Positions 2,587 to 38,470 of a DNA stretch of 64,000 nt are shown here, in pieces. This DNA is from Bacteroidota bacterium (GTDB taxonomy: Bacteria; Bacteroidota; Bacteroidia; Sphingobacteriales; Sphingobacteriaceae). The DNA is taken from the NCBI GenBank assembly GCA_018828585.1, contig JAHJVW010000080.1:10931-74930 (forward strand), given 5' to 3'. Position numbers and translations under genes: made by a program. The stretch's first letter is position 1. The number at the start of each line of letters is the position of its first letter. The notes below the pieces were generated by a model, which saw only the letters and a program-made list of their open reading frames with translations, had not been told where the DNA came from and did no database searches.

Positions 2587-3027
2587 CTAGTGCTGTGGCT
2601 CACTTAAAATCATCCAGTAAATTCCAATCTCTTTTATAGCAGAAAAAAAGTTATCGCTATCAACAGGTTTTACTATGTAACTATTAGCACCCAAAGCATA
2701 GCATTTTTTTATGTCGGGGTCTTCTTTAGATGAAGTAAGAATTACCACAGGAATAGATTTTAAGTCTGGATCAGATTTGATTTTTTCCAGCACTTCCATA
2801 CCGTTTACTTTGGGCATTTTAAGATCCAATAATATCAGTTTTGGATTTTCCTTGCTTTTTCGTGAAGCGTATAATCCTTTGCAAAAAATAAAATCAAGTG
2901 CTTCCGCTCCATCTTTTACATGAAGTAATTTATTGACAAACCCACTTTTTGTAAGTGCCCTGATAGTGAGCATAGCATCATCTTCACTATCTTCCACAAA
3001 TAATATTTCAACTTCGTCGTAATTCAT
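2587..3027 (-). CDS. Single-domain response regulator, Rcp1/phytochrome-associated type
   Basis: ILFVEDSEDD...LILLDLKMP...IPVVILTSS...GANSYIVKP; no output domain. Confidence 0.9.
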   Translation of the reverse strand: MNYDEVEILFVEDSEDDAMLTIRALTKSGFVNKLLHVKDGAEALDFIFCKGLYASRKSKENPKLILLDLKMPKVNGMEVLEKIKSDPDLKSIPVVILTSSKEDPDIKKCYALGANSYIVKPVDSDNFFSAIKEIGIYWMILSEPQH

Positions 3028-3037
3028 TGTTTATGTT

Positions 3038-5251
3038 TTAATTGTTTATAGCTGGTAAGCTGAAATAAAAACAGGTACCTTCATTTAGTATTGATTCTGC
3101 CCACACAGTTCCCCGATGTCGACTAATTATTTTTTGTACAATAGCTAGGCCAATTCCAGTACCCTCAAATTCTTCATGCGAATGTAAGCGTTGAAAAACT
3201 CCGAAAAGTTTATCATAATATTGCATATCAAAGCCAGCTCCTTCATCTTTAACAAAATAGACTATCAAGTTATCTTTTTCATAAGCACCAATTTCTATAT
3301 TAGTCATTGGTTTATATTTCGAATATTTGATAGCATTGGAAATAAGATTAATCCACACCTGTTTAATTAAAGACTGATCTCCTTGAGCAGCAGGAAGCAA
3401 TTTGATGGTAAATGCTGGTAAGTTTTCACCTTGGTCAAATATTAATTCTTTTTTTACCAATTTTACAAGGTTAATCATATTAATGTTCGAAACAGAGACT
3501 TCTTTTCTGCCTAATTTGGAAAATGCTAGCAAATCATCAATAAGGTTACCCATTCTCTTTGAATTATGCATAATGGAGTGAAGTACTTTTTTACCATCAT
3601 TATCCAATTTTTCTGAATAATCCTCTATCAGAATTTTTGAATATCCATTAATCGCTCTGATAGGTGCCCGTAAATCGTGTGATACGGAATAGGAAAAAGA
3701 GCCCAACTCTTTATTAACAGATTCTAATTGTGCGGTACGTTCTATTACTTTATTTTCTAATTCATCATTAAGTTTACGGATATCATCTTCTGCCTGCTTA
3801 AGTTCTCTGTTCGCATAGCCTAACTCATCAGCTCTTTTTTCTTTCTCTTCATTCTGAAAAGCAAGCTCTTTATTAGCAATAACTAATTCGGCTGCTCGGT
3901 GTTCTTTCTCTTCATTTTGAAAAGCTAGTTCTTTGTTCGCAATAACTAATTCGGCTGCTCGGTGTTCTTTCTCTTCATTTTGAAAAGCTAGCTCTTTGTT
4001 CGCAATAACTAATTCGGCTGCTATATTCTCTTTCTCTTCATTTTGAAAAGCCAGTTCCTTGTTCGCAATAATTAATTCTGCAGCCCGGTTTTCTTTCTCT
4101 TCATTTTGGAAGTGCAGCTCCTTGTTCGCAATAACCAATTCTGCTGCCCGGTTTTCTTTCTCTTCATTTTGGAAGTGCAGCTCCTTGTTCGCAATAACTA
4201 ATTCTGCTGCCCTATTCTCTTTCTCTTCATTTTGAAAGAGCAGCTCCTTGTTCGCAATAACTAATTCGGCAGCCCGATTCTCCTTCTCTTCATTTTGAAA
4301 AGCCAACTCTTTATTAGCAATAACTAATTCGGCTGCTCGGTGTTCTTTTTCTTCATTTTGAAAAGCTAGCTCCTTGTTCGCAATAACTAATTCTGCGGCC
4401 CTATTCTCCTTTTCTTCATTTTGAAAAGCCAACTCTTTATTAGCAATAACTAATTCTGCAGCCCGGTTTTCTTTCTCCTTATTTTGAAATTTTAATTCGG
4501 TATTGGCAATCTCCAAAACAGACGCCTGTTTTTCCTTCTCTTTATTTTGTATAATAAGTTTCTTATTGGCTATTCTCAGCTCTTTTGCTTTTTGTGCGGT
4601 AATATCTCTAGCTGCAGCAAAAACCCCTAATACATTCCCTTTATCATCTTTATAGATAGATGCATTGTATAATACATCTGTTAATGTGCCATTTTTATGA
4701 TGAATAGTTAACGGGTAATCTGAAACAAATTCTTTTTCAAAGACCTGCTTATATCCTTCACGAGCTTTTTGTGGTTCAGTGAAATAATCAGAAAAATCTG
4801 TTCCAATTAGTTTTAACCTTGGTACACCAGTTATTTTTACTGATGCTTCATTTACATCCGTAATTTTCCCTTCTGGAGAAATAGTCACAAGTGGATCAAG
4901 CGATGCTTCAATCAAACTTCTTGCATACATGGAAGCCTGTTTTATCGTATTGCTAATTACTTCAAGTTCTTTACTTTCTTTTACCCTTTTTTTCTTTTCT
5001 GCATTTTGAAAGGCAAGTTCTTTATTCGCAATAATTAATTCTGCTGCCCTATTTTGTTTTTCCTCATTTTGGAAGAGCAACTCCTTATTAGCAATCACCA
5101 ATTCTGCTGCTCTGTTTTCCTTCTCTTTACTTTGAAAAACAAGTTCTTTATTAGCGATAGCTAACTCCACCGCCCTAACTTTTTTCTCCTGTTTCTGAAG
5201 TGCAAGCTCTCTATTAGCAATAACAAGTTCATCCGATTTATTTTTCTCCAT
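3038..5251 (-). CDS. Cytoplasmic PAS histidine kinase with long 21-aa tandem coiled-coil repeats
   Basis: PAS (SLIEASLDPLVTISPEGKITDVN...AARDIT), H-box SYSVSHDLRAP, N box NAIKY, GTGIGL; no TM helix or signal peptide. Confidence 0.92.
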   Translation of the reverse strand: MEKNKSDELVIANRELALQKQEKKVRAVELAIANKELVFQSKEKENRAAELVIANKELLFQNEEKQNRAAELIIANKELAFQNAEKKKRVKESKELEVISNTIKQASMYARSLIEASLDPLVTISPEGKITDVNEASVKITGVPRLKLIGTDFSDYFTEPQKAREGYKQVFEKEFVSDYPLTIHHKNGTLTDVLYNASIYKDDKGNVLGVFAAARDITAQKAKELRIANKKLIIQNKEKEKQASVLEIANTELKFQNKEKENRAAELVIANKELAFQNEEKENRAAELVIANKELAFQNEEKEHRAAELVIANKELAFQNEEKENRAAELVIANKELLFQNEEKENRAAELVIANKELHFQNEEKENRAAELVIANKELHFQNEEKENRAAELIIANKELAFQNEEKENIAAELVIANKELAFQNEEKEHRAAELVIANKELAFQNEEKEHRAAELVIANKELAFQNEEKEKRADELGYANRELKQAEDDIRKLNDELENKVIERTAQLESVNKELGSFSYSVSHDLRAPIRAINGYSKILIEDYSEKLDNDGKKVLHSIMHNSKRMGNLIDDLLAFSKLGRKEVSVSNINMINLVKLVKKELIFDQGENLPAFTIKLLPAAQGDQSLIKQVWINLISNAIKYSKYKPMTNIEIGAYEKDNLIVYFVKDEGAGFDMQYYDKLFGVFQRLHSHEEFEGTGIGLAIVQKIISRHRGTVWAESILNEGTCFYFSLPAINN
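3810..4590 (-). repeat. Tandem 63-bp / 21-aa coding repeat, about 13 units (consensus AELVIANKELAFQNEEKENRA)
   Basis: 10 near-identical units, 2 diverged units and 1 degenerate unit, counted in the translation; coordinates approximate. Confidence 0.95.
4990..5235 (-). repeat. N-terminal block of 4 more 21-aa repeat units
   Basis: DELVIANRELALQKQEKKVRA / VELAIANKELVFQSKEKENRA / AELVIANKELLFQNEEKQNRA / AELIIANKELAFQNAEKKKRV; coordinates approximate. Confidence 0.9.
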
Positions 5252-29479: not shown

Positions 29480-29509
29480 TTGATTATCTCTTTTAGGTTC
29501 TTATATTTG
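29480..29509 (+). promoter_or_regulatory. Bacteroidetes primary-sigma promoter of the his operon
   Basis: TTG (29480-82), 19-nt spacer, TATATTTG (29502-09), matching the -33/-7 consensus. Confidence 0.7.
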
Positions 29510-29547: not shown

Positions 29548-29610
29548 ATGAAAAGATTATTGACAACTCTACATCATCTACATCATCACCATTGCGGTGA
29601 TGTTATCTAG
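29548..29610 (+). CDS. hisL: His operon leader peptide MKRLLTTLHHLHHHHCGDVI
   Basis: Manual translation; 6 His codons in 7 positions; lies between the promoter and hisG. Confidence 0.85.
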   Translation: MKRLLTTLHHLHHHHCGDVI

Positions 29611-29678: not shown

Positions 29679-30530
29679 TTGAAAACTTTAAAAATTGCTA
29701 TCCAGAAATCTGGTAGACTGAATGAAAAATCAGTAGAACTATTAAAAAATTGTGGCTTAAGCTTCGATAATTATAAAAGCTCTTTAATTTCTCCGGTGTC
29801 TAATTTTCCTTTGGAAATTCTCTTTTTAAGAGATGATGATATACCAGAATATGTACAAGACGGCATTGCTGATATTGGTTTAGTAGGTGAAAATGTAATT
29901 GCCGAAACTGGTGTTGAAGTAGCTTATTTACAACGTTTAGGTTTCGGGAAATGTACCTTAAAAATTGCAGTTCCTAATCAAAGTGATTATAAAACAGTTG
30001 CTGATCTAAGAGGTAAATCAATCGCAACTTCCTATCCTGTAATACTTCAAAAATTTTTAGATAAAGAAGGTATTTCTGCAGATATAAAAACCATCTCTGG
30101 TTCTGTTGAAATTGCTCCTGGTTTAGGCCTTGCAGATGCTATTTTTGATATCGTTTCTACCGGTGGGACTTTACGAAGCAATGGCTTAAAGCCTTTTGCT
30201 GATGTGATGGCGTCTGAAGCAATTTTGATTGGCAGAAAAGGTGAAGAAACAAATCCTTTAATTTTAGAATTGCTGCAACGCATTCAATCCGTAATGCGAG
30301 CGAAAGAGACAAAATATGTCGTCTTAAATGTCGAGAAGAAAAATCTCGATAAAATCATCGCTTTATTGCCTGGCGTAAAGAGCCCTTCTGTTGTCAACCT
30401 CGCCGAAGAAGATTGGGTTGCGGTACATACTGTCATTCCAGAGAGAGATTTTTGGAATCATATCAATGAATTAAAAACAGCTGGCGCACAAGGAATTGTG
30501 GTGATGCCGATAGAGAAAATTATATTATAG
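29679..30530 (+). CDS. hisG: ATP phosphoribosyltransferase (long form), TTG start
   Basis: LKIAIQKSGRL, RDDDIP, GSVEIAP.LGLADAI.DIVSTG.TL. Confidence 0.97.
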   Translation: MKTLKIAIQKSGRLNEKSVELLKNCGLSFDNYKSSLISPVSNFPLEILFLRDDDIPEYVQDGIADIGLVGENVIAETGVEVAYLQRLGFGKCTLKIAVPNQSDYKTVADLRGKSIATSYPVILQKFLDKEGISADIKTISGSVEIAPGLGLADAIFDIVSTGGTLRSNGLKPFADVMASEAILIGRKGEETNPLILELLQRIQSVMRAKETKYVVLNVEKKNLDKIIALLPGVKSPSVVNLAEEDWVAVHTVIPERDFWNHINELKTAGAQGIVVMPIEKIIL

Positions 30531-30605: not shown

Positions 30606-31901
30606 ATGAAACAATATAATTATAAAGATTTAAGCAAAGTCGACATTCAAAAGTTGGTCGCAAGGAATGTTGATGCTAATAATCGTATTCGTGAAAGTGT
30701 AGAAACCATTATCTCAGAAGTGAAGGCTAAAGGAGATGAGGCTTTAAAATCTTATGCCCTAAAATTTGATGGTGTTGACTTGGATTCTTTATTTATTGAG
30801 AAAGAAGAAATCAATCGATTAGCTAATCAAATTTCCGAAAAAACCAAAAATGCGATCAATATCGCATATCAAAACATCAAAAAATTTCACGAAACGCAAA
30901 TTTCTAAAGAAGAAAAAGTAGAAACCACTACTGGAGTGACTTGCTGGAGAGAAGCTAGAGCCATTGAGCGAGTTGGCTTATATATTCCTGGCGGAACAGC
31001 TGTACTGCCAAGTACCTTTTTAATGCTAGGGGTACCTGCAAAAATTGCTGGATGTAAGGAAATTGTGGTTTGCTCTCCTCCTCAAAAAAGTGGAGAAGTA
31101 AATGGTTATTTAGCTTACGTGGCTCAGTTGTTAGGCATTAATAAAATATATTTAGCTGGTGGTGCACAGGCTGTGACAGCAATGGCTTATGGAACGGAGA
31201 GCATACCAAAAGTAGATAAGATTTTCGGGCCAGGAAATCAATATGTGACTATGGCAAAAACCTTAGTACAATCTACCACCAACACAGCCATTGATATGCC
31301 CGCAGGACCATCAGAAGTTTTGGTAATTGCAGATGAAACCGCAAATCCAATTTTTGTTGCTTCAGATTTATTAGCCCAAGCAGAACATGGGGTGGATAGC
31401 CAAGCAGTTTTGGTTTGCTCTTCTCAGAAAATCATAGATAAAACCATTTTAGAATTAGAGAAACAATTGTTCGTTTTACCAAGAAAAGAAATCGCCGCTA
31501 AGGCTATTGATAATTCTTATGTGGTTTTAGTTAAAGATTTACAAGAGGCGATGACTTTCAGCAATGAATATGCTCCCGAACACCTGATTTTAGCAACTGA
31601 TAACTGGCAAAAGATTACGGATCAGATTTTGAATGCAGGCTCGGTGTTTGCAGGGAATTTAACTCCCGAAAGTGCTGGTGATTATGCTAGCGGAACCAAC
31701 CATACTTTACCAACCAGTGCTTATGCCCGCTCCTATTCTGGTGTTTCTTTAGATTCTTTTGTAAAGAAAATTACTTTTCAGCACATCAGCGAAAGCGGAA
31801 TAAAAAATCTAGGACCAAGTATAGAGATTTTAGCAGAAATTGAAGGTTTGCAGGCTCACAAAAATGCTGTGAGTTTACGTTTAAAAGAAATTAAAGAGTA
31901 A
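30606..31901 (+). CDS. hisD: Histidinol dehydrogenase
   Basis: GLYIPGG, DKIFGPGN.YV, IDMPAGPSE, LAQAEH, APEHL, GTNHTLPT. Confidence 0.97.
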   Translation: MKQYNYKDLSKVDIQKLVARNVDANNRIRESVETIISEVKAKGDEALKSYALKFDGVDLDSLFIEKEEINRLANQISEKTKNAINIAYQNIKKFHETQISKEEKVETTTGVTCWREARAIERVGLYIPGGTAVLPSTFLMLGVPAKIAGCKEIVVCSPPQKSGEVNGYLAYVAQLLGINKIYLAGGAQAVTAMAYGTESIPKVDKIFGPGNQYVTMAKTLVQSTTNTAIDMPAGPSEVLVIADETANPIFVASDLLAQAEHGVDSQAVLVCSSQKIIDKTILELEKQLFVLPRKEIAAKAIDNSYVVLVKDLQEAMTFSNEYAPEHLILATDNWQKITDQILNAGSVFAGNLTPESAGDYASGTNHTLPTSAYARSYSGVSLDSFVKKITFQHISESGIKNLGPSIEILAEIEGLQAHKNAVSLRLKEIKE

Positions 31902-31955: not shown

Positions 31956-33008
31956 ATGTTTGATTTAAATAAAATCATCCGACCCAATATAAAAGATTTA
32001 AAGCCTTACTCCTCAGCAAGAGACGAGTTTAAGGGTGAGGCTTCTGTTTACCTAGATGCCAACGAAAATGCATTCGGTTCTCCGCTTTCGCAAGCTTTTC
32101 ATCGTTATCCAGATCCAATGGCTTATGCAGTAAAAATGCGTTTGAGTGAGATTAAAGGTGTACCAGCTAGAAATATATTTTTAGGAAACGGAAGCGACGA
32201 AGCTATTGATATTTTATTCCGAAGCTTTTGCAATCCTGGCGTAGATAATATAATTATCGTCCCTCCTACTTATGGAATGTATGAGGTTTCTGCAAACATT
32301 AATGATGTGCAAATAAAAAGAGTAAATCTGACGGAAGATTATCAGCTCAATTTAGAAGGTATCGCTGAAGCAATTGATAAAAATACAAAGTTGATTTTTA
32401 TTTGTTCCCCTAATAATCCAACAGGAAATTCAATTAAACGGGAAGACATTGAAACACTTTTAGCCAATTTTAATGGTTTGGTGGTGATTGATGAAGCTTA
32501 TATCAATTTTTCCAGACAAAAAACTTTTATCCAAGAACTAACAGAATATGCCAACTTGGTAGTGCTACAAACTTTATCTAAAGCTTGGGGATTAGCCGCA
32601 TTAAGAGTGGGAATGGCTTTCGCAAGTGAAGAAATTGTGGAAATCTTTAATAAAGTAAAACCACCATATAATGTCAATGAAGCTTCGCAGAAATTCGCTT
32701 TGGAAGCTCTGCAAAATGTAGATCAGGTAAATAATTGGATTAAAGAGATTTTAAAAGAACGCGATGCACTAGTTTTAGCATTGAAGAATTTCGATTTCGT
32801 AATTGATATTTATCCATCAGATGCAAATTTTGTTTTAGTGAAAACTGCTGACGCGGATGGTATTTATAAATATTTAACCGAAAAAGGTATTATTGTGAGA
32901 AACCGCAATAAGGTGGAGTTGTGCGAAGGTTGTTTACGAATTACTGTGGGAACGAATAAAGAGAACCAGGCTTTAATCAATAGCCTAAAAAAATTGAAAG
33001 ATGATTAA
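31956..33008 (+). CDS. hisC: Histidinol-phosphate aminotransferase
   Basis: [40 protein letters not shown]. Confidence 0.97.
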
Positions 33009-34137
33009 ACTATTATTTATCGATAGAGATGGCACTTTAATTTTAGAGCCAGAGGATGAGCAGATTGATTCATTTACTAAACTCATATTCTATCCAGGTG
33101 CCATCAGCAATTTGGCTAAAATCGCCAAAGAAACTAATTTTGAATTGGTAATGGTCACTAATCAAGATGGTTTAGGAACAGCTTCGCATCCAGAAGAGAA
33201 TTTTTGGCCAGTACACAATTTTATCCTTCAAACTTTAGAGAATGAAGGCATTCACTTTAGCGAAGTTATCATTGACCGAACTTTTGCTAAGGATAATGCG
33301 CCCACTCGTAAACCCGGAACAGCATTACTCACTAAGTTTTTTGATTCAAAGAAATATGATTTAGTAAATTCATTTGTCATTGGAGATCGTTTAAACGATG
33401 TGGTTTTGGCTAAAAATTTAGGTACAAAAGCCATTTGGCTAAATAATAATCCTGATTTAGGTGCCAACGAAGCTCAAAATAAAATTGAAAATTTAAATGA
33501 AGTTTTAGCTATTGAAACTTCAGAATGGGATGCGATTTATCGCTTTTTGAAAGTGGGTGATCGCAAGATTGAACATATTAGAAAAACCAAAGAAACGAAT
33601 ATTGAAATTAAAATTAACCTAGATGGAAAAGGTGATGCTGATATTTCGACAGGTTTAAATTTCTTTGACCATATGTTAGATCAAATTGCCCGTCATGGTG
33701 GAATTGATTTAAAAGTACACACCAAAGGCGACCTACACATTGACGAGCATCATACCATCGAAGATACCGGTATTGCTTTAGGAGAAGCTTTCGCTCTGGC
33801 TTTAGCCGATAAAAAAGGGATCGAAAGATATGGTTTCTGCCTACCCATGGATGATTGTTTGGCACAAGTAGCCATTGATTTTGGAGGTAGAAACTGGATT
33901 GTTTGGGATGCGGAGTTTAAACGTGAGAAAGTGGGTGATATGCCTACTGAGATGTTCTTCCATTTCTTCAAATCTTTTTCAGATGCATCAAAATCTAATT
34001 TAAACATAAAAGTCGAAGGCGATAATGAGCACCATAAAATAGAAGCTATTTTTAAAGCTTTCGCAAAAGCAATTAAAATGGCTGTAAAACGCGACATTAA
34101 TAACATGAGATTACCAAGTACAAAGGGACTTTTATAG
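33001..34137 (+). CDS. hisB: Bifunctional histidinol-phosphatase / imidazoleglycerol-phosphate dehydratase
   Basis: HAD DRDGTL N-domain; IGPD motifs [21 protein letters not shown]. Confidence 0.96.
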
Positions 34138-34200
34138 TAGCAAGATTCTAATATCAAGTATAAAGACGTTAAACATCTTGCTACTTGCTACTAAATACTA
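34135..34200. repeat. Heptamer-period inverted repeat ((T/A)AGTAGC units) in the hisB-hisH spacer
   Basis: AGTAGCAAGAT (34136-46) / ATCTTGCTACT (34175-85), with further degenerate 7-mers. Confidence 0.7.
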
Positions 34201-34211
34201 AAATCTTCAAA

Positions 34212-34802
34212 ATGATAGGTATAGTAAATTACGGAGCCGGAAACATATTCTCCCTAACAGCTGCATTAGAGCGTTTGGATTTAAAATATGGCATGATTAA
34301 TTCTGAAACGGATTTTGATTTTTACGATAGAATCATCATTCCTGGTGTAGGTCATGCAGGAACTGCCATGAAGAAACTAGTAGATACTGGCCTAGTTCCA
34401 AAAATTAAAAGTTTAACCAAACCCGTTTTAGGGATTTGCGTTGGAATGCAGTTGATCACCGACTTTTCCGAAGAAGGCAATTCAAAAATGTTGGAAATTA
34501 TCCCAGTAAAAACTTTGAGGTTTAATGAAGAAGTCTCAAAAAAAGTACCTCACATGGGTTGGAACCAGGTAGAGGTCCAAAAAAATATCCCATTATTTAA
34601 TGATATTGACACATCTGCATATTTTTATTTCGTTCACTCCTATTTTATAGAATTTAATTCTAAATTTACGGTCGCCTTTTGCAATTACGGAATTAAATTT
34701 TCCGCTGGAATACAGAGAGATAACTTTTACGGAGTACAGTTTCACCCAGAGAAGTCTGGTGAAGCAGGCGAAATACTCCTTAAAAATTTTGCACACTTAT
34801 AA
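34212..34802 (+). CDS. hisH: Imidazole glycerol phosphate synthase, glutamine amidotransferase subunit
   Basis: Start moved to MIGIVNYGAGN; PGVG, LGICVGMQ, VPHMGWN, QFHPEKS. Confidence 0.96.
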   Translation: MIGIVNYGAGNIFSLTAALERLDLKYGMINSETDFDFYDRIIIPGVGHAGTAMKKLVDTGLVPKIKSLTKPVLGICVGMQLITDFSEEGNSKMLEIIPVKTLRFNEEVSKKVPHMGWNQVEVQKNIPLFNDIDTSAYFYFVHSYFIEFNSKFTVAFCNYGIKFSAGIQRDNFYGVQFHPEKSGEAGEILLKNFAHL

Positions 34803-34811
34803 ATTGTAAAA

Positions 34812-35561
34812 ATGTATATCATTCCCGCAGTAGATGTGTTGGATCAAAAAATTGTTCGCCTTAGAGAAGGGGATTACAATCAGGTCACTACATATCAAGC
34901 TTCTTTGGAAGAACAAATTGAACTTTACCAATCTAACGGTACCGAATATGTTCATATCATTGATCTAAATGGTGCCAAAGGAGACTTTTCTAACCAAAAG
35001 TTCATTTTCGATATCATCAAAAAAACAGATATGAAAGTGCAGTATGGTGGAGGTGTTAGAAGTATTGAAAAAGTAAAAGAATTAATAGATTCGGGTATTC
35101 ACAGAGTAATCGTAGGTACACAAGCCATTACAAATCCTAGATTTTTAGAAGAATTAGGTCAAGAAATTTGTGGCAAAACCAAATGCTCTGACCAAGTAGT
35201 TATCGCAATTGATGTTTTAGACGAAGTCATCAAATACTCTGGTTGGATGGAAAGCTCACCCATTAAATTAATGGATTATGTAGATCGTTGTTTACAGTTA
35301 GGCTTTTACAGATTTCTTTGTACAGATATTAATAAAGATGGAAAACTAGGGGGTGCTGGACTGGAATTATATAAAAAACTATTAGCTCACTCTCCTTTTA
35401 TTAAATTGATCGCTTCAGGCGGGATCAGTTCTATGAATGATATTGAAGAATTGAATGAATATAAGATTGAATCTTGCGTTGTAGGTAAGGCCATTTACGA
35501 AAACAGAATTTCAATTGATGAAATTAAAGACTGGAATTTACAAATGCTAAGCACAATATAG
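34812..35561 (+). CDS. hisA: ProFAR isomerase
   Basis: IIPAVD, HIIDLNGA, QYGGGVRS, TDINKDG, ASGGI. Confidence 0.93.
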   Translation: MYIIPAVDVLDQKIVRLREGDYNQVTTYQASLEEQIELYQSNGTEYVHIIDLNGAKGDFSNQKFIFDIIKKTDMKVQYGGGVRSIEKVKELIDSGIHRVIVGTQAITNPRFLEELGQEICGKTKCSDQVVIAIDVLDEVIKYSGWMESSPIKLMDYVDRCLQLGFYRFLCTDINKDGKLGGAGLELYKKLLAHSPFIKLIASGGISSMNDIEELNEYKIESCVVGKAIYENRISIDEIKDWNLQMLSTI

Positions 35562-35573
35562 CCCCTTATTGTT

Positions 35574-36329
35574 TTGTTAGCTAAAAGAATTATCCCCTGC
35601 CTCGACGTTAAAGACGGACGAACCGTAAAAGGTATTAATTTCGTCGATCTTCGCGATGCAGGTGATCCTGTAGAGTTAGCTTGGCAATATTCTCGTCAGG
35701 GTGCAGATGAGTTGGTTTTCTTAGATATTACAGCCACTCACGAAAAACGTAAAACTACCATTGAAATGGTGAAATCTGTTGCTCGTCAAATTAACATTCC
35801 ATTTACCATTGGAGGTGGAATATCCGAGTTAAAAGATGCGGAAGCTTTATTAAATGCTGGAGCAGACAAAATTTCTATCAACTCCGCAGCAGTACGGAGA
35901 CCAGAGCTAATTAACGAATTGGCTAATGCTTTTGGAGTTCAGTTTGTAGTTTTAGCTGTAGATACAAAACATTTATCTAGTGGAGATTTTGTTCATTTAA
36001 ACGGTGGAAGAATAACCACAGAATTACAAACCCAGCAGTGGATAAAAGAAGCTGTGGAACGCGGTGCTGGTGAAATATTATTAACATCAATGGATAAAGA
36101 TGGAACTAAGGCTGGCTTTGATACGATACTTTTAAAAGAAATAAACGATATGATTTCTGTTCCAGTTATTGCTTCCGGTGGAGCAGGATCTGCTCAAGAT
36201 TTTATAGATGTTTTCCAAAAAAGTGATGTAGATGCCGCTTTAGCAGCTTCAGTTTTTCATTACGGAGAAATCTTGATTCCGGAGTTGAAACAATTATTAA
36301 AAAACAATCAAATTGAAATAAGGCTTTAA
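35574..36329 (+). CDS. hisF: Imidazole glycerol phosphate synthase, cyclase subunit
   Basis: [46 protein letters not shown]. Confidence 0.97.
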
Positions 36330-36345
36330 TTTGCTAACTTTAAGA

Positions 36346-36588
36346 ATGGAATCTTTAACAATAGAAATTTTAAATCCAAAAGCTAAAAAGCTGTTACAAG
36401 CTTTAGCAGAAATGAATCTCATTTCTATTTCTCAAAATTTTTTAGCTAAAGATGAAGAAGAATGGGATTCATTAACTAAAGAACAAAAAGAAGGAATTTT
36501 TGAGGCAATAAATTCAATTAAGCAAGGCAAAGGAATTCCACATGCTGAAGTCATGTCTAAAATAAAAATGAAATTGTTTAATGGTTGA
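36346..36588 (+). CDS. Type II antitoxin (addiction-module component)
   Basis: Start moved from TTG 36331 to ATG 36346; small protein with acidic WDSLTKEQKEGI.EAI..I..GKGIPH.EV motif; overlaps the downstream toxin. Confidence 0.72.
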   Translation: MESLTIEILNPKAKKLLQALAEMNLISISQNFLAKDEEEWDSLTKEQKEGIFEAINSIKQGKGIPHAEVMSKIKMKLFNG

Positions 36589-36886
36589 TGAGTTAATTTG
36601 GTCACCAGAATCTGAAGAAGATTTCTTAAATATCTTAAACTATCTTATTTCAGATTGGAATGTAAAAATAGCCAGTGATTTTGTTAAGGATATAGAATAT
36701 CACATTGAAAAAATTCATAATAATCCACAATCATACCCCATTATTTATAAACAAGAACAAGTTAGAAAATGCGTTGTAACTAAACACAATAGCTTAGTTT
36801 ATAACTTATTAGATAATAAAATTTTTATTTTAAGAGTCTTTGATACTCGTCAGAATCCTAATAAATTAAAATTCCCAAAACAGTGA
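36581..36886 (+). CDS. RelE/ParE superfamily toxin (ParE-like)
   Basis: IWSPESEEDFLNILNYL N-terminus, NP..YP, VRKCVV...SLVY, ILRVFDTRQNP C-terminus; 101 aa. Confidence 0.82.
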   Translation: MVDELIWSPESEEDFLNILNYLISDWNVKIASDFVKDIEYHIEKIHNNPQSYPIIYKQEQVRKCVVTKHNSLVYNLLDNKIFILRVFDTRQNPNKLKFPKQ

Positions 36887-37470
36887 ATATAAATTTTACA
36901 AAAAGCGACGGATTAGTGCCTGTTATTATTCAGGATGAACAAACTTTAGAAGTGTTAATGTTAGGCTATATGAATGAAGAAGCTTTTCAAAAAACAGAAA
37001 AAGAAGGGAAAGTGACCTTTTTCTCTCGTACCAAAAACCGTTTATGGACCAAAGGTGAAGAAAGTGGAAATTACTTAAATGTAAAGTCTATCAACTTAGA
37101 TTGCGACCAAGATACTTTATTGATTAAGGTAAATCCAGTTGGACCAACTTGCCACACAGGTTCTCGAAGTTGCTTTTCAACAGATTACAATCAAAACTTC
37201 ATATTTCAGCTGGAAAATATCATCAAAGATAGATACGAAAATCCCACGGCAGAATCTTATATCAATAAACTAAGAGCTAAAGGACTAAACAAAATTGCTC
37301 AGAAAGTGGGCGAAGAAGGTGTAGAAACGGTGATTGCAGCTCTGGCAGAAACTGAAATTGATTTAATTAACGAATCATCTGATTTAGTCTTCCACCTACT
37401 GGTTCTGTTAAAAGAAAAAGGTTTGAATTTGAACGATATTGCAAAGAATTTAGAAAGTAGACATCAATAA
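36883..37470 (+). CDS. hisIE: Bifunctional phosphoribosyl-AMP cyclohydrolase / phosphoribosyl-ATP pyrophosphatase
   Basis: GLVPVIIQD, LWTKGEESG, DCDQDTLL, PTCHTG..SCF, KVGEEGVE. Confidence 0.96.
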   Translation: MNINFTKSDGLVPVIIQDEQTLEVLMLGYMNEEAFQKTEKEGKVTFFSRTKNRLWTKGEESGNYLNVKSINLDCDQDTLLIKVNPVGPTCHTGSRSCFSTDYNQNFIFQLENIIKDRYENPTAESYINKLRAKGLNKIAQKVGEEGVETVIAALAETEIDLINESSDLVFHLLVLLKEKGLNLNDIAKNLESRHQ

Positions 37471-37472
37471 TT

Positions 37473-37555
37473 TTAGGGCGTTCGAGCGGGCTTTTTGCTC
37501 ATACTGCTCAAAGCGGCCTTAACCACAGGCTGGTATCCGCTACAATCCCTAACGC
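37473..37555. repeat. GC-rich structured intergenic element (REP-like, possibly Flavo-1-like)
   Basis: Nested stems TTAGGG/CCCTAA, AGCGG/CCGCT, CGGCCT/AGGCTG, GCTTT/AAAGC; the family name is from memory and unverified. Confidence 0.5.
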
Positions 37556-37567
37556 ATCCATCAGCAT

Positions 37568-38470
37568 ATGAAAGCTATTACATTAACTGGCCACAATAAT
37601 CCTATTTACACGGTAATAGCACACCCTGATAAAGCTTTTTTTTACTCCGCTGGAAATGATAAAGGGATTGTAGAATGGGATCTAAATACGAAAACTCATC
37701 AGCGAATTTTCAAAGTCCAACACACTGTTTATGCATTAGAAATTATTCCAGAATTAAACCTATTAATTGCTGGTGCTAATGATGGAACAATTTATTTTTT
37801 TGATTTAAACTTAGGCTTATTAGTTAAAAAATTAAATGTTGGTTCTGCTATTTTTGACATCAAGTATATTGCACATAAAAAAGAGTTATTGATTTCAACA
37901 GATTCAGGCAATATTTTCATTCTAAATCAAGAAGAAAAAGAAATCATCCATCAATTTCAATCAGGAAGTCAAAAGGTTCGTTCATTTGCATTTTATCAAA
38001 AGTTGAATTTATTAGTCACGGTCTCTAATGATGAATTGATAAGAGTTTACAATTTAGATGATTATGCTTTTATCCACCAATTTAAAGGACATGATAACGG
38101 AATAGGTTCTGTTTGTTTTTCACCTGATGGCAGATTTCTAATCACTGGTGGAAGAGATGCGCATTTAAAAGTTTGGAATGTATTGGATTGGAGTTTGGAA
38201 CGTGATTTTCCTGCTCATCTATTTGCTATTTATCAAATTATTTATCATCCAACGCTTCCATTTTTCGCAACAGCAAGCAGAGATAAATCTATTAAAATAT
38301 GGCGAGCAGAAGATTTTTCACTTTTCAAAAATCTGACTATCGGTAAAGCTAGAGAAGGACATCTACTTTCTGTAAATGATATTTGTTGGACAACGGATGG
38401 GGAAAATTTAATTTCTGTTGGTGATGATAAGTTTGTGAAAGTTTGGGGATTTGATGCTCTGAAATCTTAA
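37568..38470 (+). CDS. WD40 repeat protein
   Basis: GH...D..I..W repeats (GHNNPIY, GHDNGIGSV...GRDAHLKVW, SRDKSIKIW). Confidence 0.88.
   Translation: MKAITLTGHNNPIYTVIAHPDKAFFYSAGNDKGIVEWDLNTKTHQRIFKVQHTVYALEIIPELNLLIAGANDGTIYFFDLNLGLLVKKLNVGSAIFDIKYIAHKKELLISTDSGNIFILNQEEKEIIHQFQSGSQKVRSFAFYQKLNLLVTVSNDELIRVYNLDDYAFIHQFKGHDNGIGSVCFSPDGRFLITGGRDAHLKVWNVLDWSLERDFPAHLFAIYQIIYHPTLPFFATASRDKSIKIWRAEDFSLFKNLTIGKAREGHLLSVNDICWTTDGENLISVGDDKFVKVWGFDALKS

Follow-up and report, generated by a model that had tools for sequence, protein, structure and literature searches.

What are two small open reading frames (ORFs) doing in the middle of a histidine operon, wedged between hisF and hisIE, and for how long have they been there? 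The question is raised by a 64-kb stretch of DNA from a Pedobacter-like bacterium (contig JAHJVW010000080.1; 64,000 nucleotides (nt), hereafter the window, by which we mean the whole stretch analysed), where both frames lie on the forward strand, that of an antitoxin first and that of a ParE-family toxin second. Our overall reading, to which we give a probability of about 70%, is that they form a type II toxin–antitoxin (TA) cassette, made of a ParE-family toxin and a two-module antitoxin, housed in a hisF–hisIE slot which is conserved, inherited and exchangeable. The features of the junction are as follows (aa, amino acids).

35574–36329, forward strand: hisF, imidazole glycerol phosphate synthase cyclase subunit (Pfam His_biosynth, E 5e-80)
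36327–36329, forward strand: hisF stop codon TAA
36335–36342, forward strand: -7-box-like element TAACTTTA, 3 nt before the antitoxin ATG, within the 16-nt hisF–antitoxin spacer
36346–36588, forward strand: antitoxin, 80 aa, stop 36586–36588 (ORF list)
36346–36435, forward strand: antitoxin N-module, residues 1–30, common to ParE-type and PIN-type cassettes
36460–36579, forward strand: antitoxin C-module, residues ~39–78, accompanying the ParE toxin
36581–36886, forward strand: ParE-family toxin, 101 aa, stop TGA 36884–36886 (Pfam PF05016)
36883–36886, forward strand: GTGA, overlap of the hisIE start (GTG 36883–36885) with the toxin TGA stop
36883–37470, forward strand: hisIE, bifunctional PRA-CH / PRA-PH (NCBIfam HisIE equivalog, 284 bits; Pfam PRA-CH and PRA-PH)

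An earlier note on this DNA, made from the sequence alone, had given coordinates for the hisF stop, the antitoxin, the toxin, hisIE and the box at 36335–36342 that all hold in the sequence, as do the two overlaps that it described, of the antitoxin with the toxin (36581–88) and of the toxin with hisIE (GTGA, 36883–86). The toxin begins at ATG 36581 and shares 8 nt (ATGGTTGA) with the end of the antitoxin gene; the latter starts at ATG 36346 and not at the in-frame TTG 36331, as witnessed by gene calls on 17 contigs and by homologues.

Origin and age of the insert

The DNA between the two his genes (36330–36882) differs from its surroundings, with a guanine-plus-cytosine (GC) content of 26.2%, as compared with 33.7–37.6% in the his genes and 34.6% in the window, and a value as low is reached by only 0.2% of the 553-nt windows of the 64-kb stretch. 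The impression of AT-richness previously gained by eye is thus borne out by measurement. Nothing marks the ends of the insert: its boundaries were searched for terminal inverted repeats and flanking direct repeats and gave none, in keeping with the earlier statement that insertion sequence ends and target duplication are absent. The short repeats found nearby are AT-rich and look like chance matches, and a CTTTAA-N8-CTTTAA direct repeat spanning the hisF stop and the box, tried as an operator or as a duplication, leads to no conclusion because its first copy is merely the last hisF codon plus the stop. The window holds no second copy of either the toxin or the antitoxin gene.

That the two genes are an insertion follows from the state of the junction elsewhere. 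The genome and metagenome scans used here were pattern-based and cover the matches listed, the distribution within the clade being therefore that of a sample; the scan of GTDB species genomes for HisIE returned at least 80 loci. Among the matches listed, 52 other Sphingobacteriaceae loci show no TA match at the hisF–hisIE junction (0/52, tblastn), all but one of them have a hisF–hisIE gap of at most 185 nt, and in seven the hisF stop overlaps the hisIE ATG as ATGA. The exception is Pedobacter nototheniae (L033), where a gap of 610 nt holds an unrelated, lipoprotein-like ORF of 184 aa (3404–3958). Because the junction is contiguous in these other loci, and often translationally overlapped, the cassette ORFs must be seen as inserted, and the earlier view that they had been spliced into the his operon is sustained by the short or overlapping junction of the relatives outside the clade. 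Whether hisF is directly followed by hisIE in relatives had been proposed as a check, and the answer is twofold: it is so, with the one exception of P. nototheniae, in the Sphingobacteriaceae loci listed that lack the TA pair, and it is not so in the close clade, which carries the cassette. As a separate observation, the hisF–hisIE junction of a Maribacter metagenome-assembled genome (MAG), unrelated to that of P. nototheniae, is filled by an Asp/Glu racemase gene (L058, 3253–3996).

The low GC content, in the lowest 0.2% of windows, would suggest by itself a recent horizontal insertion, private to the genome of the window. This explanation is hardly tenable when the relatives are considered. 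All toxin homologues of at least 57% identity with an examined context (P0002, P0003, P0007, P0010) sit in the order hisF, antitoxin, toxin, hisIE, and the same order is found in two metagenome contigs, L177 and the divergent L159, the toxin of which is only 46% identical. Besides these two contigs, the loci with this order are L081 of Pedobacter psychrophilus, L082 of a Pelobium MAG, L083 of P. alpinus and L084/L085 of GCA_037968815. HisF of the window is 90–94% identical to that of the TA-bearing relatives and at most 79% to that of others, among the matches listed. In neighbour-joining trees of HisF, HisIE and the concatenated HisA, HisF and HisIE (697 columns), the TA-bearing loci make one clade, with 100/100 bootstrap support, apart from all sampled relatives devoid of the pair, and every sampled member of this clade, ten lineages among the matches listed, has the cassette at the junction. 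Orthologous cassettes at the same site in at least ten lineages, together with the single clade that these lineages form, refute a recent private event.

Within the clade the His proteins are 85–96% identical and the toxin and antitoxin 46–70%. The ratios of non-synonymous to synonymous substitution (dN/dS), computed for five lineages, are 0.11–0.30 for the toxin, 0.09–0.44 for the antitoxin and 0.01–0.07 for the his genes, values which are approximate because synonymous sites are saturated (dS > 1) among the lineages compared. They indicate that both small genes have long been kept under purifying selection, which argues against decay as well as against recent transfer, and the phylogeny indicates likewise that the slot is an old feature of the whole clade, vertically inherited, and not a one-off insertion. 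In this respect the earlier note has to be amended, if the splice that it described is read as private or recent. The DNA sequencing runs that match the region are metagenomes from groundwater, marine and glacier samples.

The toxin, its partner and the exchange of payload

The assignment of the toxin begins with Pfam PF05016 (ParE_toxin; 37.1 bits for a cut-off of 23), a family that spans the entire RelE/ParE superfamily, and the match would also fit a RelE-like, ribosome-dependent mRNA endonuclease instead of a ParE-type gyrase poison. For the endonuclease one may also cite the orthologue from P. psychrophilus, which reaches 23 bits against NCBIfam RelE_StbE, a weak score below the cut-off of 27.9, the invariant polar residues R62, K68, D88, R90 and Q91, which might make a catalytic site, and the antitoxin, which shows just weak matches of the RelB/ParD type. 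Profile and fold speak otherwise. A profile built from 23 relatives of the toxin and run against the PDB has six matches at E ≤ 0.004, all of them ParE or ParE-type toxins (PrpT), among which 3kxe, 5cw7, 8c24 and 7r5a, and which include Caulobacter ParE1, E. coli ParE2, M. tuberculosis ParE1 and Vibrio ParE2; RelE, YoeB and HigB are not among these significant matches. The AlphaFold (AF2) model of the toxin, with a predicted local distance difference test score (pLDDT) of 89, has ParE or ParE-like toxins at Foldseek ranks 1 to 18, with template modelling (TM) scores of 0.69–0.78, as against 0.50–0.64 for RelE, YoeB, HigB and YafQ. The toxin also retains the family-invariant R62, C64, K68 and F87–Q91; R62-x-C64 and F87-D-T-R-Q91 align with the R-x-C and h-L-H-x-R motifs of ParE, and the C-terminal [VI]FDTRQNP motif aligns with V/I-L-H-x-R of the solved ParEs, as do F87-D-T-R-Q91 and the NPNKLKF after it. 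This C-terminal segment of ParE is needed for its toxicity. An endonuclease of the RelE kind is therefore unlikely, the conserved R-x-C and C-terminal h-[FD/LH]-x-R going with ParE, and the evidence supports placing the toxin in the ParE branch, as a new member that stands nearer to ParE than to RelE both in profile and in modelled fold, with a predicted activity against gyrase. The earlier note had reached the same preference from the toxin termini. In the collections searched for plasmid and phage relatives, a single plasmid match, at 30% identity, and no phage match were obtained, none of which is convincing.

The partner is less familiar. Its 52 relatives, in a search of 1.84 billion representative proteins, each match one half of the protein, either the N-terminal 30 or the C-terminal ~40 residues, and the antitoxin is therefore made of two modules. 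The C-module follows the pattern W..LT.EQ..GI..AI..I..GKGIPHxEVM and immediately precedes the toxin gene of this family in about 67 of 77 loci (tblastn in genomes and metagenomes, among the matches listed), a co-occurrence which, as far as sequences can tell, is the pattern expected of a cognate antitoxin. No Pfam family, PDB sequence relative, Foldseek match or PADLOC model corresponds to the antitoxin, and its score against NCBIfam RelB_ParD (17 bits for a cut-off of 60) is below threshold. Its model is all-helical, devoid of strand, with an N-module modelled at low confidence. The N-terminal ribbon-helix-helix domain of ParD was looked for in the antitoxin and not found, and because of this the pair is best described as a ParE toxin with a non-ParD partner, not as a canonical ParDE; the conserved N-module is a candidate for the DNA-binding part of the protein. 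Two small, adjacent and co-directional genes, the antitoxin first and overlapping the toxin by 8 nt, arranged alike in the orthologues, with a toxin of a recognised superfamily and a partner that co-occurs with it across genomes, have the make-up of a type II system. The identification of a TA pair, proposed beforehand, thus finds support both in the 37 bits of PF05016 and in the partner C-module.

Comparison of the ten lineages then reveals that the content of the slot is not constant. Seven hold a ParE toxin, one of them a divergent allele, and three (L001, L178 and L179) a VapC/PIN toxin of the PIN_3/TIGR00305 type, the antitoxin of which joins a VapB15-like C-module to the same N-module, within the same junctions. 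The clearest pair is that of L001, of PIN type, and L081, of ParE type: their His proteins are 96% identical, and hisA, hisF and hisIE, compared in 60-nt windows, are mostly 83–100% identical, with one window at 72%. The other PIN-type lineages are L178 and L179–181, and in L179 it is the PIN stop that overlaps the hisIE GTG. L001 and L179 are not sisters on the tree, and this suggests that ParE and PIN were switched more than once, although the internal nodes are weak (30–47/100). The N-module, MES(L/I)T(I/V)EI(L/I)NPKAKKLL..LA.(L/M)NLI.I, is common to all ten lineages, conserved as protein while the DNA is only 56–83% identical, and the type of the antitoxin C-module co-varies with that of the toxin. 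Two further cases illustrate the process. The antitoxin of L177 (110 aa) is a chimera, in which the N-module is followed by a VapB15-like segment and then by the ParE-partner C-module, and the ParE toxin of L159 is 55% identical to toxins outside his operons as against 43–46% to those embedded in them.

These comparisons indicate that a payload, the toxin with its binding C-module, is swapped between ParE alleles and VapC/PIN while the entry and the exit of the slot stay fixed. The exchange would probably proceed via recombination, for which the conserved sequences of hisF and hisIE on either side would serve as homology arms. It had been proposed that the operon may shelter the module from deletion; since the payload is exchanged between ParE alleles and VapC/PIN, what is sheltered is the slot, and not this particular module. 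Two items that stand outside curated families are brought to light at the same time, a Bacteroidota antitoxin module which partners ParE, and an N-terminal antitoxin module common to ParE and VapC cassettes.

Embedding in operons was also considered as a general habit of the toxin family and rejected, as most of the 77 loci (among the matches listed) have 100–400-nt gaps and mixed orientations. Individual cases do exist. In Flavobacterium sp. LS1R47 (L088, 2781–3303), a ParE-family cassette, 38–40% identical, is found between the genes of mevalonate diphosphate decarboxylase and of a GHMP (mevalonate-type) kinase, with gaps of 30 and 4 nt, and makes a second, independent operon insertion. In L132 (1376–3131), an 84-aa ORF placed before a related cassette repeats the N-terminus of a methyltransferase-like gene of 310 aa right downstream, the start of which is overlapped by the toxin stop, a duplication maybe left by insertion.

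Proposed expression of the cassette within the his operon

How would such a cassette be expressed? The operon that carries it is complete, lies on the forward strand and has the following upstream features.

29480–29509, forward strand: putative his promoter of the Bacteroidota sigma-A type, TTG (29480–82), 19-nt spacer, TATATTTG (29502–09) (sequence reading, pattern listing)
29548–29610, forward strand: His-rich leader ORF of 20 codons, MKRLLTTLHHLHHHHCGDVI, candidate attenuator leader
29679–30530, forward strand: hisG (ORF list; named from reading the translation, without family search)
30606–31901, forward strand: hisD (ORF list; named from reading the translation, without family search)
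31956–33008, forward strand: hisC (ORF list; named from reading the translation, without family search)
33001–34137, forward strand: hisB (ORF list; HisB (IGPD) Pfam match in relatives)
34185–34802, forward strand: hisH (ORF list; HisH (GATase) Pfam match in relatives)
34812–35561, forward strand: hisA (ORF list; located by tblastn in relatives; Pfam His_biosynth in relatives)

The leader peptide has six His in seven consecutive codons, its region folds better than shuffled versions (z = -3.7), and one can see in it a GTTTTG/CAAAAC stem with TTTT after it; no Rfam family matches in the leader or the window. The His-sensing leader evoked in the earlier note has therefore a basis in the sequence, an ORF of His codons after a perfect TTG-N19-TATATTTG, which makes it a candidate attenuator. 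A sigma-70 promoter scan returned fewer sites than in shuffled sequences, with a model which is not applicable to Bacteroidota.

Between the hisF stop and hisIE no terminator-like site was found, the only ones on the forward strand lying inside hisF, and since neither side leaves enough space for a terminator the cassette would be transcribed on the his mRNA. The forward strand from 36343 to 37467 has no TAnnTTT[AG] box, hence no -7-like box belonging to hisIE itself, and since none occurs between 36343 and the end of hisIE this gene would have to be transcribed through the cassette. A search of RNA sequencing runs for the region found no match. The distance from the toxin stop to the hisIE start is -4 to about +11 nt in all ten TA-bearing loci, and the tight chaining of the two genes pointed out earlier is thus a conserved property. 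In these ten lineages hisIE starts with GTG (10/10). Among the 59 loci aligned from residue 1 in the matches listed, 57 have ATG as the start codon, one has TTG, and the sole GTG belongs to L001, the nearest relative in the HisIE scan, which is itself TA-bearing.

We can then propose the following scenario. The slot would go back to a single insertion, which took place in the ancestor of a Pedobacter/Pelobium subclade at a hisF/hisIE junction that was probably very tight, and it would have been inherited vertically with the operon ever since. Its entry would be fixed by the TAnCTTTA box and the antitoxin N-module, its exit by the toxin stop abutting or overlapping the hisIE GTG, and the payload in between, the toxin and the toxin-binding C-module, would be swapped by recombination. 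The cassette would be carried on the his mRNA from the promoter under control of the His leader, rising when attenuation is relieved, and the internal box may in addition yield a leaderless or near-leaderless transcript. The antitoxin would be translated first, its C-module neutralising the toxin, and ribosomes leaving the toxin ORF would re-initiate at the weak GTG of hisIE. If they do, the supply of HisIE would depend on transcription and translation through the cassette, and this dependence, added to addiction, would make an imprecise loss of the slot costly.

A different source of transcription has to be weighed at this point, namely that the module is autonomous, expressed from its own leaderless mRNA at the TAnCTTTA box and self-repressed, the his context being a safe landing site where attenuation has no meaningful effect. 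In Bacteroidota the sigma-A motif TAnnTTTG occupies positions -12 to -5 and leaderless mRNAs make about 4–5% of all mRNAs (PMC9723704; PMC7366714). The earlier note had singled out a near-consensus -7 box 3 nt before the antitoxin ATG; it is present, TAACTTTA fitting TAnnTTTG at seven of eight positions with A for the final G, and it is kept as TAnCTTTA (TA(A/T/C)CTTTA) 3–4 nt before the ATG in ten of ten orthologous loci while the rest of the spacer, 16–18 nt long in nine lineages and 26 nt in L178, varies. A box at -12 to -5 would allow transcription to start on the A of this ATG or no more than one nucleotide away. Because TAnnTTT[AG] occurs by chance about 1.7 times per kb and per strand in the window, a single occurrence would be weak evidence, and it is conservation that carries the weight. 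Furthermore, most of the wider toxin family, among the matches listed, is free-standing, and its upstream gaps of 100–400 nt imply promoters of its own. The box has nevertheless an A for the conserved G and no conserved -33 element goes with it, although the -33 motif is often undetectable in Bacteroidota (PMC7366714), and with a 16-nt spacer devoid of terminator-like sites read-through from the his promoter seems unavoidable. An autonomous module is thus a real possibility, of which we are doubtful. It is mostly compatible with an inherited slot in the his operon, from which it differs in the source of transcription, and it would further provide hisIE, from the internal promoter, with a basal transcript free of attenuation.

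A third explanation would see in the two genes a domesticated, non-toxic pair, kept as spacer ORFs or as a regulator tuning hisIE translation or his expression. Long retention in a housekeeping operon, with a stop/start junction that is maintained, is what it would predict, and the switch of hisIE to GTG fits a dependence on upstream translation. Yet the slot holds unrelated toxins, each with a matching antitoxin C-module, as expected of selfish or defence payloads, and the his-embedded toxins keep all residues that are invariant across the wider, mostly free-standing family. Domestication is thus highly improbable, because a regulator specific to histidine would show such a turnover of payload less typically than selfish or defence cargo.

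Several points weigh against our own reading, that of an inherited and exchangeable TA slot expressed with the his operon. At the last position of the box all lineages have A instead of the G of the sigma-A consensus, and the -33 TTG varies, with ATTG in the window, L081, L082, L001 and L159 and ATAG in L083, L084, L177 and L178; at the 3-nt spacing, a consensus at -12 to -5 puts +1 at 0–1 nt beyond the A of the start codon. That hisIE starts with GTG is one shared-derived change and does not count as ten independent events, and co-transcription, an internal start site and coupling all rest on geometry. Autoregulation is a guess, because the antitoxin has no recognisable DNA-binding fold and the model of its N-module is of low confidence. 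Saturation of synonymous sites makes the selection estimates approximate, and clade members devoid of the TA pair could have been missed by pattern-based scans.

The scheme can be pushed further, to a dedicated and exchangeable toxin slot hard-wired to the histidine attenuator, with hisIE translated solely via the toxin ORF, the whole acting as a switch to growth arrest or abortive infection triggered by starvation. We consider this strong form rather improbable. If it were true, histidine starvation or translational stress would raise TA transcription and shift the balance between antitoxin and toxin, while selection for diversity would keep replacing the payload.

As regards the surroundings, a GC-rich spacer of 97 nt (37471–37567; e.g. 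GGTATCCGCTACAATCCCTAACGC) comes after hisIE. A 24-mer from it that was tested occurs just once in the window, and no clear intrinsic terminator was found within the spacer. The next gene after the his operon (37568–38470) encodes a WD40/beta-propeller protein of 300 aa, found at the same position in the TA-bearing L082, L083, L084 and L179. Upstream, the hisA–hisF gap is often occupied as well. Several Pedobacter and Mucilaginibacter genomes have there a DUF559 (Vsr-like endonuclease) gene (L033 2198–3394, L084 1612–2757, L031 2763–2945), which in L084 and L033 reads in frame into hisF as a single ORF of 381–398 aa, and in L081 and L083 this gap is of ~420 nt, without a canonical hisF start codon. 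Other Bacteroidota his operons have varied small passenger genes in it, for DUF1572/DinB-family proteins, four-helix proteins of the 23S-rRNA-intervening-sequence type and predicted membrane proteins of 70–79 aa, at the loci below.

L058, 1857–2366: hisA–hisF passenger
L075, 2642–3172: hisA–hisF passenger
L079, 2679–3194: hisA–hisF passenger
L057, 2765–3130: hisA–hisF passenger
L070, 2805–3089: hisA–hisF passenger
L003, 2796–3035: hisA–hisF passenger
L012 and L015, ~2800–3070: hisA–hisF passengers
L036, 2753–2992: hisA–hisF passenger

Hitch-hiker genes seem to settle frequently in the his operon.

Comparison with known TA systems

The usual picture of a chromosomal TA module is that of a free-standing, mobile element of short duration, and the retention and control of such modules are debated. 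What we have here is a module built into an amino-acid operon and chained to the essential gene after it, persisting through genus-level divergence, the toxin of which is yet replaced as an allele would be. Searches of full-text literature did not turn up any TA module described within a his operon, nor was a description of allelic TA exchange at a fixed junction inside a biosynthetic operon found in the literature. A natural system, available in culture with strains such as P. psychrophilus and P. alpinus, allows one to ask whether an operon context stabilises a TA locus, and the same system bears on the control of a toxin by amino-acid attenuation and on the exchange of payload on a fixed antitoxin platform.

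The neighbourhood of TA modules and of genes for amino-acid metabolism or the stringent response has precedents. In relA-mazEF a TA locus is next to a stringent-response gene. The E. coli yefM-yoeB pair is upstream of the his operon and outside it, divergent and transcribed away from it (PMC1802561). The present locus resembles both in that a TA module adjoins genes of this kind, and is unlike yefM-yoeB in that it stands inside the his operon, between two structural genes, with stop and start overlapping.

With canonical ParDE systems (Caulobacter ParDE1, 3kxe; M. tuberculosis ParDE1, 8c24; P. aeruginosa ParDE, 6xrw) the module shares the ParE fold and motifs, the small size of the proteins and an antitoxin gene that comes first and overlaps the next. 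It departs from them through an antitoxin which is not a ribbon-helix-helix ParD, with no Pfam, PDB or Foldseek match, and through its position, wedged in a biosynthetic operon, where it is chained to the gene that follows, instead of being free-standing. PaaA2-ParE2 of E. coli O157 (5cw7/5czf) is closer, with the best TM match to the toxin model (0.77–0.78) and, likewise, a ParE toxin associated with a non-canonical, largely helical antitoxin, although the two antitoxins are without sequence similarity. PaaA2-ParE2 belongs to a module of three genes within a prophage setting, not to an operon junction. The kinship with VapBC concerns the alternative payload of L001, L178 and L179, a PIN_3/TIGR00305 toxin with an antitoxin whose C-terminus is VapB15-like; this payload is absent from the window, and its antitoxin bears the N-module of the ParE type and not a described DNA-binding domain of VapB.

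Finally, modular mix-and-match of type II antitoxins and toxins, with swapping of partners, is a known theme, of which the Panacea antitoxin domain is an example. The slot follows this theme, in that one N-module is joined to different toxin-binding modules and toxins, and in that a chimeric antitoxin occurs. It differs in that the exchange takes place at a single, fixed site of the chromosome, with conserved his genes on either side, and for this reason it looks like allelic replacement and not like shuffling between dispersed loci.

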